Below, in pieces: positions 6,830-17,674 of a stretch of DNA of 17,942 nucleotides. The notes under the pieces were generated by a model. That model worked only from the letters and a program-made list of their open reading frames with translations, was not told where the DNA came from and searched no databases. The translations under genes were made by a program, and so were the position numbers. The stretch's first letter is position 1. Every line of letters starts with the position of its first letter. This stretch comes from Candidatus Eiseniibacteriota bacterium (GTDB lineage Bacteria > Joyebacterota > Joyebacteria > Joyebacterales > Joyebacteraceae): the NCBI GenBank assembly GCA_043819135.1, contig JBDRFG010000172.1, positions 1-17,942 of the forward strand. Direction: 5' to 3'.

Positions 6830-6940
6830 CTATGTCTGAGAGAGTAGCCGGAAGCTACTGTGCCCCTTCGGCCCTGCGACCACCACCAATCCCACAGAGT
6901 CCCACAGAACCACGCTCTGAGACACCAACCCGGGGAGCCA
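6830..6940. repeat. att-associated repeat copy 1 (111 bp)
   Basis: Ends GGGGAGCCA. Minus strand reads WLPGLVSQSVVLWDSVGLVVVAGPKGHSSFRLLSQT*. 88/111 nt identical to copy 2 by hand count. Confidence 0.9.
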
Positions 6941-6946
6941 GCACAC

Positions 6947-6978
6947 CGAGTACTCAGTCTGTCAAGATTGAGTACTCG
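6947..6978 (+). terminator. Hairpin following repeat copy 1
   Basis: 14-bp stem CGAGTACTCAGTCT / AGATTGAGTACTCG (one G.U), loop GTCA, followed by a pyrimidine-rich tail. Confidence 0.65.
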
Positions 6979-7134
6979 CGCTTTCTCTTCTGTCTGGGCG
7001 ACTTGGCACGGCTGAGCACACGCTTGCATGGGTCGACGCCCCTCTGATACGCGCGAAGTCGAGCCCTCCGCTGCTGTCCACACTGAAGACTAGCGCAGCT
7101 ACAGACCGTGACCTCCTCAACCTCTGCTGCTTGG

Positions 7135-7163
7135 TTGGCGGTCGCAGCTCAGTGTGCTATGCT
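7135..7163 (+). promoter_or_regulatory. Candidate sigma70 promoter with extended -10
   Basis: TTGGCG - 17 nt - TATGCT with TG one base before the -10, about 65 nt upstream of ATG 7230. Confidence 0.45.
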
Positions 7164-7229
7164 TGGCTATCCACACTACCTACAGGATTCGAAATCGGAC
7201 GATGTCTCCGGCGCAACTGGAGGTCTGAC

Positions 7230-14006: not shown

Positions 14007-17000
14007 ATGAGGGGATTCCCTCCTTGGATGAAGGCATTGCTGGCCGCAGCGGCGGTCGGCTTCGTGGTTAGCGGAGCCTGGTTCTATCGTGCGCAGGAGC
14101 AGCGCCAGCGTGATGCGGTCGAGAGCGAACTAACCGCGGTCGGCACTCTCAAGGCCGCGAACGTCGCAGCCTGGCGCGACGAGAGGCTGAACGATGCCGG
14201 GCTCCTCATGGAGAACCCGTTCCTGAGGGATGGGATCAGCCGGTGGCTGGAGGCACCGGGCGAGTCCGCCGCGGAGGCGGACCTGCTCGGCTGCTTCGAG
14301 AGCTTGCGTGTGCATGGTGACTACGAGAACGTCCTGCTCGTATCGCCTGATGGTGAGGTGCTTCTCTCGCTCGAGCATAAAGCACACGGTCTACTGGCAG
14401 ATGAGGTACACGACGCGCTGACCGTGGCCTTCGGGGAGATTCGCCCGACACTGACGGAACTCCACACGGGCCACGAGCACCCAGTACTTCACTTGGGTGT
14501 GGTTGGCGTGTTCACCACAGAGGGAAACGGGGCGCCGGAGCCCTTGGCGGGGGTCATCCTCGTCTGTGAGGCACATAGCACGCTCTGCTCCATCCTCGAG
14601 AACTGGCCCACCCAGAGCCGCACGGCGGAGACGATCCTCGTCCGGAAGGACGGCGATGGCGTGCGTTTCCTCAGCGGTCTCAGACACGAGCAAGGCTCGC
14701 CTCTCAACCGGCGTATTCCCTTGAGCGAGGCGGGTCCACCGACTGTCGCCGCTGTCTCAGGTGAGTACGGGGTCCTTCAGGGGAGAGACTACCGCGGGGT
14801 GGAAGTCCTGGCTGTCGTCGGTCCCGTTACAGGCTCGTCCTGGTCCGTCATATCAAAGGTCGATGCCGCCGAGGCTCTCGCCTCCTGGCGGTCCCGTTCT
14901 GTGGTCACTCTGTTGCTCACCGGGGGCTTTGCGCTCCTGGTGGTCGCGGTCATGCTCTTCCTCTGGCAAAGGCACGAGCGAGTACAGTACCAGGCCCTCT
15001 ACGAGTCTGAAGCCGCCCTCCGGGAGAGTGATAGAATCCTCGGCGATACCGGACGCCTCGCGAAGATTGGCGGGTGGGAGCACAATCTCGCAACGGGCGG
15101 TGTCGTCTGGACGTCGGCGCTCCATGAGATCGTCGGGATTGAGCCGGGAGCGCAGTCCCCGGGCGTCGACGAGCACATGGAGCGGTACGTAGCCGAGCAC
15201 CGCCGAACCCTGGAGGAAGCGTACCGGCGCTCGTCCAACGAGGGTGCTCCGTTCGATCTCGAGCTTCAGTTCCGCACCGGCGATGACAGGCTCATCTGGT
15301 GCCGGGTCTCCGGCGAGCCCGTTATGGAGGGCGGGCAGTGCGTCAGGATGCGCGGTACGTTTCAGGACATCACGGACAGGAAGGTCTCGGAACTCGAGCG
15401 GATCGCCGCGCTCGATGACGCGAAGGCACGTGGCTCGGAGCTGCTGGAGCAGAAGGAGAAGTACCGCCTGCTCGCGGACAACACGACCGATATCATCTGG
15501 CTGATGGACCTCTCGATGCAGTTCACCTACGTGAACCCTGCGGCCGAGACGCTTCTAGGATGGAAGCCTCAGGAGATGGTCGGCACCTCCCTGCGCGATT
15601 ACTGTGCCCACGAGCAGCTGCGCGCGATTATGGACATCGTGCAGGACACGGTCGCGGCACTTCCCGAGATCAAGGTGCAGAGGTTCGAGACGGAGCTGCT
15701 GCGTCGGGACGGCGAGGCGGTCAGCGTGGAGGTCGCGGGGAGACTGCTGCTTGACGACGAAGGCCGCCCTTTTGCCATCCAGGGAGTGACGCACGATATC
15801 ACGGAACGTAGGCGTGCCGCAGAGGCCCAGCGCATAAGCGAGGAGCGTTGGCGCAGCTACGTGGAGAGGGCTCCGTACGGCGTCTTCGTGGCCAACGAGA
15901 GGGGTCAGTACGTGAGCGTGAACCCGGCGGCCTCGCAGATCACCGGATACGACGAGTCGGAGCTGGTGACCATGGGAATCCCGGACATGCTCCCACCAGA
16001 GGATGCCAAAGCGGGACTGGCACCCTTTCGGGAACTGCTGCGAACCGGGGAGTCCTTCATCGAAGTGCCGTTCACGCACAAGAGCGGCGAGAGACGGTGG
16101 TGGACCGTGGCGTCCGTCAAGCTGTCCGAGACACGATTCCTGGGGTTCGTGGAAGACACAACGGAGAAGAGGAAGGCCCAGCAGGAGCGTGATGAACTCA
16201 AGTCCCAGCTCATGCAGGCCCAGAAGATGGAGGCCGTCGGTCGCCTGGCGGGCGGGGTGGCCCACGACTTCAACAACATGCTGCAGGTCATCCTCGGCAA
16301 CGCCGAGCTGGCGCTGCCGGAACTCGCTCCCGACGCCGTGGGGCACGCAGAGTTGCTGGAGATACAGGCCGCGGCGCGGAACTCCGCCAACCTCACGCGC
16401 CAGCTACTGGCGTTCGCGCGGCAGCAGACCATCGCTCCTGAGGTTCTGGATCTCAATGAGACTATCTCCAGCATGCTGAAGATGCTCCGTCGGCTGATCG
16501 GAGAGGACATCGAACTCACTTGGATGCCCGGGGCGCAGTTGTGGCCGGTCGAGCTCGACCCCTCACAGGTCAACCAGTTGCTTGCGAATCTGTGCGTCAA
16601 CGCCAGGGATGCGCTCAAGGGGGGAGGCAGCCTGAAGATCTCGACTATGAACGCCACGGTCGAGGCCTCGCGGCTCGTGTCTCACCCTGATGCGAAGACC
16701 GGCGAATTCGTGCTGTTGTCTGTGACGGACGACGGGACCGGGATGGACAAGACGACGCTCGCGAGCATTTTCGATCCGTTCTTCACGACGAAGGAAGTTG
16801 GACAAGGGACCGGACTTGGGCTGGCAACGGTCTACGGGATCGTGAAGCAGAACGACGGCTTCATCGATGTCAGGAGCGCGCCTGGTGAAGGAGCGGCTTT
16901 CAGCATCTACCTGCCGAGGAGCACTGACGCCGTCTGTGAGACGGCGAACGAACCCGCAGGAGAGCAGCAGAAGGGCCGGGGAGAGACAGTTCTGCTCGTC

Positions 17001-17348
17001 GAGGACGAGCCGGCCATCCTTGACCTTTGCTCCGGCGCACTGAAAGAGCTAGGATACTCGGTGCTGGTTGCGGGGACGCCCGCTCAGGCTCTCGAGCTGG
17101 CGGGAGAACATCAGTCGCCGGTTCACCTCCTGTTGACGGACATCGTCATGCCTGAAATGAACGGGAGGGAGTTGGCGGAGCGCCTCGGGACTCGTTTCCC
17201 CGACATGAAGAAGCTGTACATGTCGGGGTACACGGCCGATATCCTCGCTGAGCGCGGTGTGCTTTGGGAAAACATCAACTTGCTTCAGAAGCCCTTCGAC
17301 ATGGGTCAAATGGCGTCAACGGTACGCAGAGTGCTCGACGGCCCGTAG
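14007..17348 (+). CDS. Membrane-bound hybrid sensor histidine kinase/response regulator (2 TM with Cache-like sensor, 3 PAS, HisKA, HATPase, REC; ~1113 aa)
   Basis: H-box AQKMEAVGRLAGGVAHDFNNML, N-box NLCVNARDA, VTDDGTGM, IFDPFFTTKEVGQGTGLGL. REC domain VLLVEDE...LLLTDIVMPEMNG...MSGY...LQKPF. Start placed at ATG 14007 (GGGGAG upstream); ATG 14028 is an alternative. Confidence 0.9.
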   Translation: MRGFPPWMKALLAAAAVGFVVSGAWFYRAQEQRQRDAVESELTAVGTLKAANVAAWRDERLNDAGLLMENPFLRDGISRWLEAPGESAAEADLLGCFESLRVHGDYENVLLVSPDGEVLLSLEHKAHGLLADEVHDALTVAFGEIRPTLTELHTGHEHPVLHLGVVGVFTTEGNGAPEPLAGVILVCEAHSTLCSILENWPTQSRTAETILVRKDGDGVRFLSGLRHEQGSPLNRRIPLSEAGPPTVAAVSGEYGVLQGRDYRGVEVLAVVGPVTGSSWSVISKVDAAEALASWRSRSVVTLLLTGGFALLVVAVMLFLWQRHERVQYQALYESEAALRESDRILGDTGRLAKIGGWEHNLATGGVVWTSALHEIVGIEPGAQSPGVDEHMERYVAEHRRTLEEAYRRSSNEGAPFDLELQFRTGDDRLIWCRVSGEPVMEGGQCVRMRGTFQDITDRKVSELERIAALDDAKARGSELLEQKEKYRLLADNTTDIIWLMDLSMQFTYVNPAAETLLGWKPQEMVGTSLRDYCAHEQLRAIMDIVQDTVAALPEIKVQRFETELLRRDGEAVSVEVAGRLLLDDEGRPFAIQGVTHDITERRRAAEAQRISEERWRSYVERAPYGVFVANERGQYVSVNPAASQITGYDESELVTMGIPDMLPPEDAKAGLAPFRELLRTGESFIEVPFTHKSGERRWWTVASVKLSETRFLGFVEDTTEKRKAQQERDELKSQLMQAQKMEAVGRLAGGVAHDFNNMLQVILGNAELALPELAPDAVGHAELLEIQAAARNSANLTRQLLAFARQQTIAPEVLDLNETISSMLKMLRRLIGEDIELTWMPGAQLWPVELDPSQVNQLLANLCVNARDALKGGGSLKISTMNATVEASRLVSHPDAKTGEFVLLSVTDDGTGMDKTTLASIFDPFFTTKEVGQGTGLGLATVYGIVKQNDGFIDVRSAPGEGAAFSIYLPRSTDAVCETANEPAGEQQKGRGETVLLVEDEPAILDLCSGALKELGYSVLVAGTPAQALELAGEHQSPVHLLLTDIVMPEMNGRELAERLGTRFPDMKKLYMSGYTADILAERGVLWENINLLQKPFDMGQMASTVRRVLDGP

Positions 17349-17438
17349 ACGTCCAACCGACATGCTTTTTCACGACTCACACAGGCCCGGTCTGCCATGA
17401 TTGGGTCTTCCGCGTTTCTGCCCATTTACCCCGGAACA

Positions 17439-17548
17439 TGATTTGGCCTGACCCTCTGGAGCTGATCCAGTCGGAGATTCAGACTCCGTCCGGATCTCGC
17501 AGGGGGTGTTCTATGGACAGGAAACGACACACACCTGAGCAGGCCGTG
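17439..17548 (+). mobile_element. IS3-family remnant: left end and first codons of orfA
   Basis: ATG 17513 gives MDRKRHTPEQAV, typical of IS3 (IS407-like) OrfA starts. The upstream IRL-like CTCTGGAGCTGATCCAGT matches the reverse complement of the IRR-like sequence near 2138-2155 at 12/18 positions. Confidence 0.6.
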
Positions 17549-17562
17549 GCTGGGGGTAGAAT

Positions 17563-17674
17563 CCAGGTCCGAGCGAGAAGCCGGAATCCGGTGTGCCCCT
17601 TTCGGCCCGACGAGCACCTCCAGCCCCACGCTGTCCCACAGAAGTACGCTCTGGGATACCAACTCGGGGAGCCA
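17563..17674. repeat. att-associated repeat copy 4 (112 bp, +1 insertion)
   Basis: Ends GGGGAGCCA. Minus strand reads WLPELVSQSVLLWDSVGLEVLVGPKG/(+1)HTGFRLLART, with TGG at the position of the TAG in the other copies. Confidence 0.9.

Follow-up and report, generated by a model that had tools for sequence, protein, structure and literature searches.

A 36-codon repeat in a Candidatus Eiseniibacteriota cassette array is probably the severed tail of a large serine recombinase

The DNA analysed in this work, further called the window, is a stretch of 17,942 nt that makes up a whole contig (C172; JBDRFG010000172.1) of a Candidatus Eiseniibacteriota genome (assembly GCA_043819135.1). It carries four copies of a repeat of about 110 bp, ending at positions 6940, 12393, 13687 and 17674, as already recognised in a preliminary description of the sequence, where the minus strand of the repeat was read as a cryptic 36-codon gene tail. 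Here we argue that this tail most probably belongs to a large serine recombinase (LSR), from which it is split off when the element inserts into a tRNA gene. The nine bases ending each copy correspond to the 3' end of tRNA-Asn, and this core is present at six places in the window: at att0 (1951..1959, plus strand, by sequence match), in copies 1-4, and at 12263. Copy 1 (6830..6940, minus strand) holds an intact 36-codon tail followed by TAG, with the core at 6932-6940 and a half-site arm at about 6911-6931; copy 2 (12283..12393, minus strand) is likewise an intact tail with its TAG. The preliminary description rightly placed TAG at the same position in copies 1-3 (codon 37, at 6830-6832, 12283-12285 and 13577-13579). 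However, not all copies begin with the W-L-P of its consensus, for copy 3 (13577..13687, minus strand) has a mutated core and begins with TGA instead of TGG, and copy 4 (17563..17674, minus strand) has one extra base at codon 25, by which both the frame and the TAG are lost. Copies 1 and 2 are 80% identical over 142 nt (E 1.6e-29); the 7 synonymous codon differences reported between them were found again, next to 11 non-synonymous ones, and so was the switch of serine codons (TCT versus AGC at codon 15 of copies 1 and 4, respectively). A profile built from the four copies detected no fifth one in the 2.69-Mb assembly (the next best hit had E 0.23).

The units between the cores encode large secreted proteins, a spermidine-synthase-like protein and a histidine kinase, and none contains an intact recombinase. 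A search of the window for tRNA genes found none, and a low-threshold ARAGORN run gave only noise. The element ending at att0 is represented by the 3' part of a restriction-type cargo gene (3..1274, plus strand; RE_endonuc PF19778, E 8.5e-6) and by a 188-codon frame read from the core (1393..1959, minus strand), the att0 tail, in which an HTH_ParB domain match marks a ParB-like helix-turn-helix (HTH). A hairpin follows this core (1963..2000, plus strand; 16-bp perfect inverted repeat, -22.8 kcal/mol). Domain searches identified the cargo of unit 1 as a secreted beta-helix/metallophosphoesterase/FlgD-Ig protein (2905..6567), that of unit 2 as an M6 peptidase/beta-helix/FlgD-Ig protein (7230..12173), that of unit 3 as a spermidine-synthase-like protein (12792..13502) and that of unit 4 as a PAS hybrid histidine kinase (14007..17348), all on the plus strand. 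A terminator-like hairpin lies after copy 1 (6947..6978), and further hairpins lie after copy 2 (12400..12429; -15.4 kcal/mol for the 55 nt past the core) and copy 4 (17680..17711), again on the plus strand. The extra core (12263-12271) ends a stretch at 12243..12271 (plus strand) whose minus strand reads W-L-P-T-V-D; its arm, which has a T-loop-like motif 20 nt ahead of the core, forms a third class and recurs in the same genome at C107 56317 and 53815. Owing to this further core, which goes with a different tail class, the unit closed by copy 2 measures just 122 bp (12272-12393), and copy 2 takes up almost all of it, with only the tail inside. Unit 3 also holds a short remnant of an LSR coiled coil (approximately 12460..12547, minus strand; aligned with C107 LSR residues 435-463 at 48% identity, blastp E <1e-3). 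The flanks of the unit 1 cargo (window 2076-2158 and 6759-6831) are nearly adjacent on C98 of the same genome (966-1128), like an empty unit, and that site adjoins a transposase, presumably of an IS3-like family. At the right end, window positions 17802-17942 are identical to the end of contig C101, and a frame starts at 17892-17942 (plus strand), which we take to resemble the N-terminus of an IS110-family transposase.

The arrangement around the tRNA genes points to the partner of the tail. In the same genome, the tRNA-Asn on C42 ends in the core and has an opposite-strand LSR gene next to it, whose frame ends inside the tRNA. A second LSR (C107) reads into a tRNA-like 3' fragment, with the frame shifted by one base; this fragment (C107 93479-93505, minus strand), at the read-out of an intact LSR, is unlike the tRNA-Asn of this genome, and a full tRNA was not called there. 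The LSR gene overlaps attL and has its stop outside the island at C42, C107, L117 and L223, and the targets found are tRNA-Asn(GTT) and tRNA-Arg(CCT/TCT). At the L140 junction, where LSR and tail are joined, a 19-bp inverted repeat surrounds a 10-bp centre and its arms match at 15 of 19 positions; codons 4-11 of the repeat form one of these arms. Compared with the LSR-side arm of L140, window copies 1-4 match at 17, 16, 14 and 14 of 19 positions, so we call this LSR type cognate, whereas they match the C42 and C107 arms of their own genome at only 2-5 of 19. The arm at att0 matches the C42 and C107 LSR arms at 12 and 11 of 19 positions, respectively, and the arm at 12263 at 10 and 8. An attP half-site of approximately 25 bp (the text consulted of PMC3783163) would reach codon 10 of the tail. 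Thus, the first ten or so codons also serve as an LSR half-site and are constrained as DNA too. By eye, the ZD motif shifted by 5 bp between attP and attB was seen for the T-loop-like motif of the C42-type arms and not for the arm of the repeat. In run X9, the element is joined to tRNA-Asn and also to a second site that shares just five bases with it, which places the crossover within codons 1-2, in the middle of the att site; runs X8 and X9 may be the sources of the DNA. The second join (L140:7484-7488), to a non-tRNA site, has a contig depth of 16.2 versus 5.9 for tRNA-Asn, so the element uses secondary targets as well.

Intact fusions of LSR and tail occur naturally. L140 and L141 encode an intact protein of 582 residues with Resolvase, Recombinase and Zn ribbon domains that ends in the tail, L119 encodes an intact LSR of 563 residues with the same three domains and the same kind of end, and L159 is a partial fusion. 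The preliminary description had expected that an element circularised at the core would show the gene joined in frame, and this is what we found: L141, with its in-frame fusion, is a circular permutation of the integrated element L150 (99.9% and 96% identity), and its contig of 16,702 nt is within about 1% of the approximately 16,534 nt expected for one circle. The integrated counterpart is seen in L117, where the remnant of an LSR, with 91-92% identity to L140, ends after four codons of tRNA-Asn antisense and a 92.5% identical tail lies 8.4 kb away from it. Of 95 homologs of the L140 C-terminal region, a crude rule assigned 7 to the form ending in the tail and 52 to ends that are tRNA antisense or very short, leaving 36 with other ends. 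L119 is found where an array of three tails ends on a complete chromosome; since just 7 of 19 positions agree between its arm and that of the tail, we regard it as a tandem junction. In sequencing data, one contig of DNA run X8 crosses the fused junction, with only 21 letters on the LSR side versus the 31-letter rule, and no contig of RNA runs X15 and X16 bridges it; the one in X15 runs on into tRNA antisense. In-frame fusions of the tail are not limited to the cognate type, but also involve the ends of at least three LSR groups that look unrelated (L137, L044, P0014, P0018, P0064, P0075, P0213). In genome G047 (C1), the two parts of a divided L140-type LSR lie some 800 kb from each other (1635732-1636109 and 2440139-2441422); the 3' part adjoins tRNA-Arg(TCT), and this indicates a rearrangement through the element.

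We therefore propose, with a probability of roughly 85%, that the repeat is an integrase tail split off by insertion into a tRNA gene, and that the window copies are attR arms left by elements whose recombinase was lost. The LSR gene would lie at one end of the element, on the strand opposite to the tRNA and reading toward it, with the crossover in its final codons. On the circle (attP), the gene would run through the core into the repeat and gain a tail of 33-50 residues; integration at the tRNA 3' end would sever this tail, so that the enzyme ends in a few tRNA-antisense residues while the tail stays at attR. At the level of sequence comparison, the target, the symmetry of the arms, both junction forms and the selection on the peptide can be taken as established, as can the passage of the tail from the LSR gene to attR on integration. 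The suggestion of the preliminary description, that the repeat encodes the end of a gene and that the 5' part of this gene is found across the core, was thus borne out, the 5' part being an LSR; its restriction of the fusion to the excised form was not, as the tandem junction of L119 demonstrates.

A conserved half-site could in principle be all that is maintained, with the repeat conserved only as DNA (a half-site plus accessory binding sites) and the peptide a by-product of read-through. To compare copies, we used nested sets of 128 (score at least 18), 109 (score at least 35 and full length), 104 (near-duplicates removed) and 102 (two frameshifted copies removed). Some of the evidence fits such a constraint: codons 4-11 form the inverted-repeat arm, codon 9 is an invariant AGC in 104 of 104 copies, the linker over the att site is disordered in both structural models discussed below, and selection in this phylum is weak. 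However, the half-site stops at codon 10, while in codons 15-34 of the 104 copies the conservation of the three codon positions is 0.68, 0.75 and 0.46, and disjoint closest pairs from other phyla give a ratio of non-synonymous to synonymous differences per site (pN/pS) of 0.21 (15 pairs, p 1e-13). The pooled ratio of substitution rates (dN/dS) over the same codons is 0.22-0.29. Four other frames give 1.0-2.1, and the antisense frame with which third positions are shared gives 0.29-0.46; the preliminary description's coding reading is supported, as dN/dS is well below 1 outside the motif used for searching. Between two tails that accompany one and the same cargo there are 16 synonymous and 2 non-synonymous changes, and 23 of 24 aligned copies from several phyla are free of indels. 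The repeat is thus protein-coding, with codons 15-34 under purifying selection in other phyla, and conservation as DNA only is very improbable. A structured RNA or an attC-like folded site was also considered and rejected, since the plus strand of the 24 copies has no conserved fold (consensus -3.1 kcal/mol, covariation -0.09); an Rfam search up to E 1 returned no match.

Another possibility is that the peptide acts on its own, as a stand-alone product of about 30 residues made from attR, starting at TTG or GTG at codon 5 or 6 and serving as a directionality factor in trans. The preliminary description had excluded a start codon within the repeat, wrongly, for TTG or GTG is found at codons 5-6 of the window copies and a start-like codon at 5 or 6 in 92 of 104 family members. 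A free peptide is, moreover, predicted to dock as its own chain at the DBD2 edge, and a contig from the RNA library X15, which may represent DNA, spans the tail apart from the LSR. Against this, such a codon is missing in 12 of the 104 copies and is ATG in only 19, these codons fall inside the DNA arm, no purine-rich ribosome site was seen upstream of them in the sequence, and the upstream sequence varies between copies. A start supplied by the flank, the alternative of the preliminary description, gains nothing from its correct observation of GTG two codons before the core at copy 1 and att0: a start at most 10 codons upstream occurs in 40 of 125 copies, versus 42 and 38 in the other two frames. 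We therefore regard a stand-alone peptide as quite improbable, though less so than conservation as DNA only. The stop, which had been called conserved, holds its position only within a subfamily; open frames of 36 codons occur in 13 of 128 copies, and open frames of 33-50 codons in 104 of 128.

Structural modelling was used to ask what the tail could do on the enzyme. The best fold matches of the partner protein are serine integrases, and SPbeta integrase aligns until its own C-terminus, which falls at the residue before the linker (Z 12.8, root-mean-square deviation 7.1, 205 aligned residues), so the integrated form keeps the canonical fold; fold searches do not bear on the hairpin itself. 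In both the full-length and the C-terminal model, a disordered linker over the att site precedes a hairpin, which in the C-terminal model has a predicted local distance difference test score (pLDDT) of 80-92 at a predicted template-modelling score of 0.79. Tail residues 11-32 are predicted to form a beta-hairpin extending the DBD2 sheet. When modelled as its own chain, the tail forms a strand pair with the final strand of DBD2 (505-511) and reaches the base of the coiled coil, with contacts at 503-513, 353-369, 375-387 and 459-469. The complex scored 0.75, whereas the best of 3 controls scored 0.00, the runs share at least 87% of contacts, and the partner has a pLDDT of at least 70; the score mark, which applies roughly to the alignments used, was attained by 116 of the 157 solved complexes, as against 2 of the 215 mismatched pairs. 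Binding at DBD2 and the coiled-coil base is thus a prediction supported by the models. We lean, if slightly, toward the view that the tail caps the site of the directionality factor, so that the enzyme of the circle would be integration-prone or relaxed in site choice, and that of the integrated element uncapped and open to control of excision. A capped enzyme that accepts occupied tRNA sites would explain tandem build-up. The opposite sign, with the tail as a built-in factor that delays re-integration, is possible but seems less likely to us.

Several observations weigh against the proposal of a split-off integrase tail. In this phylum, selection on the peptide is weak: the disjoint closest pairs, of which few come from it, give pN/pS of 0.71 (4 pairs, p 0.3) and 0.61 (9 pairs, p 0.02), and the antisense frame is equally low at 0.53. 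Most of the distant copies came from searches with a peptide pattern and profile, and this introduces a bias toward open frames. A search of the window's own genome (one query, 92% complete assembly) found no LSR of the cognate type, the best hit being the N-terminus of another LSR (E 1e-15); the type is present in the same genus, ending in tRNA-Arg antisense. In L182, an intact C107-type LSR meets the repeat arm out of frame, which argues that many array junctions are accidental. L141 may possibly be a head-to-tail tandem instead of a circle, as the far end of L150 and 3.3 kb of L141 lie outside the comparison. Finally, in the full-length model the tail hairpin (544-565) has a low-confidence pLDDT of 62-69.

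The tail family extends well beyond this genome. A DNA search matched 10 of 41 genomes, i.e., its own and 9 of 24 of the same family, with 0 of 16 outside the family, and a peptide profile matched 11 of 31 genomes of the phylum. The arrays sit behind tRNA-Asn and tRNA-Arg(CCT); at tRNA-Arg the core differs and the peptide continues. A DNA profile run over 32 sources of this phylum detected 34 copies, of which 26 are full and open, 3 have one-base indels, 2 early stops, and 3 are partial. Scanning a genome collection gave 38 loci, with record labels that include Latescibacterota, Krumholzibacteriia, TA06, Spirochaetota, Bacteroidota, Syntrophales, Gemmatimonadales and Eubacteriales; metagenomes gave 75 loci from the best 80 of 112 matches, and viral contigs 1 locus out of 8 pattern matches. 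A profile search of 1.84 billion proteins returned 119 matches, and of the 32 that were read by eye about 14 are LSR C-terminal remnants running into the tail. Searches with the tail found no family in Pfam and no usable match in the Atlas. Two archaea-labelled genome records (L111, L120) have tails nearly identical to bacterial ones, for which transfer or misbinning are possible.

As for the window copies, we take them to be orphaned attR arms within a tandem array at tRNA-Asn that has no integrase, since two of the four are broken, and most likely they are not translated now. Alternatively, they could be working parts of integrase-less cassettes, whose insertion before a resident LSR gene completes the enzyme. 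The many full and open copies in this phylum (the 26 of 34 given above) would agree with this, as would L119, a chromosomal case in which an intact LSR continues into the tail of a cassette. The unit 3 cargo gene, 88-94% identical at the DNA level in four related genomes, stands there at other array positions, and across these relatives the tails beside it differ at 0.41-0.80 of synonymous sites versus 0.07-0.13 for the gene itself, which means that tails have been exchanged. Yet two broken copies out of four, the pN/pS of 0.6-0.7 for close pairs in this phylum and the LSR remnant in unit 3, as expected of a decayed element, speak for orphans; the arms past the cores are hairpins and non-cognate (0-3 of 19 positions for four hairpin arms), and out-of-frame junctions exist. 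We thus consider working cassettes unlikely in the window. A wider scheme appears equally speculative to us, namely a self-editing directionality switch of tRNA-targeting serine integrases, with swappable caps for the directionality-factor site encoded beyond attP (this hairpin, a hairpin plus ParB-like HTH as at att0, or a short third class), in which integrase-less cassettes re-arm the resident integrase in an integron-like tRNA array.

The frame at att0 follows the same plan as the split-off tail, with another tail, and represents a second class of C-terminus severed from an LSR: of its 14 longer homologs, 9 have recombinase Pfam domains. It has no detectable homology to the 36-codon tail (hhalign probability 0.4%), and a look-alike motif between the two was rejected as not significant. 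Relative to the core, the ParB-like HTH frame differs by one base among copies, in agreement with the frame of the respective LSR type (C42 versus C107). The same HTH frame is also present in this genome at C50 23140-23706 and C107 58152-58709. In the C107 element, with 35 kb between the cores, LSR and tail are in the same frame. Short ends related to the third arm class occur on LSR homologs, e.g., P0141, P0143 and P0167.

Similar layouts have been described in other systems. The ssrA islands of Dehalococcoides are tandem, bounded by the 3' end of a small-RNA gene, and many have no integration module; the gene for their DsiB, a CcrB-like LSR encoded on the reverse strand, overlaps attL without a stop codon within the island, and it was proposed that dsiB is complete only on the circle or behind a neighbour island with a 3' fragment (McMurdie et al. 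2011, PMC3146451, in the sections consulted). The window and its relatives share with them the LSR that overlaps attL and stops outside, and the tandem islands, some without an integration module. They differ in the target, here tRNA-Asn or tRNA-Arg instead of ssrA, and in that the DsiB ends are called divergent, with no conserved fragment mentioned in the sections consulted of PMC3146451, while here a conserved fragment family is under selection, is seen fused and has a predicted docking site. Thus, the layout was already proposed for DsiB, whereas the conserved tail family and its predicted docking site appear to be new; we found no paper on either, in a search of the main texts of mostly open-access papers. 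According to the part of PMC12286644 available to us, predictions have most recombination directionality factors extend the DBD2 sheet by a beta strand and contact the part of the coiled coil close to DBD2. In models of the SCCmec Ccr recombinases, enzymes that act on many pairs of sites, there are additional strands at the C-terminus, and these could obstruct that site. The tail is likewise predicted to add a strand to DBD2 and to touch the coiled-coil base. However, directionality factors are separate genes and the Ccr strands are permanent, whereas the strands of the tail would be attached and removed by recombination itself. In SSV-type archaeal integrases the att site lies inside the integrase gene, the targets are tRNA genes, integration splits the gene, and adjacent elements give chimeric genes (consulted text of PMC8371274). 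The system described here has the att site within the integrase gene as well, but the SSV-type enzymes are tyrosine recombinases that lose a catalytic part, while the serine enzyme keeps its canonical fold and loses an appendage. Integration of myxophage Mx8 at a tRNA gene replaces the C-terminus of its integrase and changes its activity; this is a phage tyrosine recombinase with no cassette array, unlike the serine tail system with its arrays.

The tail supplies the conserved 3' fragment that was merely guessed at for DsiB. It also bears on a question left open in the consulted part of PMC12286644, namely whether extra C-terminal DBD2 strands replace or block the directionality factor; one enzyme naturally exists with and without such strands, so this question becomes testable. 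Database LSRs from integrated elements are often the truncated form, which is relevant to the mining of integrases for tools. For Ca. Eisenbacteria, the split-off tail accounts for the repeat that marks cargo arrays of large secreted proteins.

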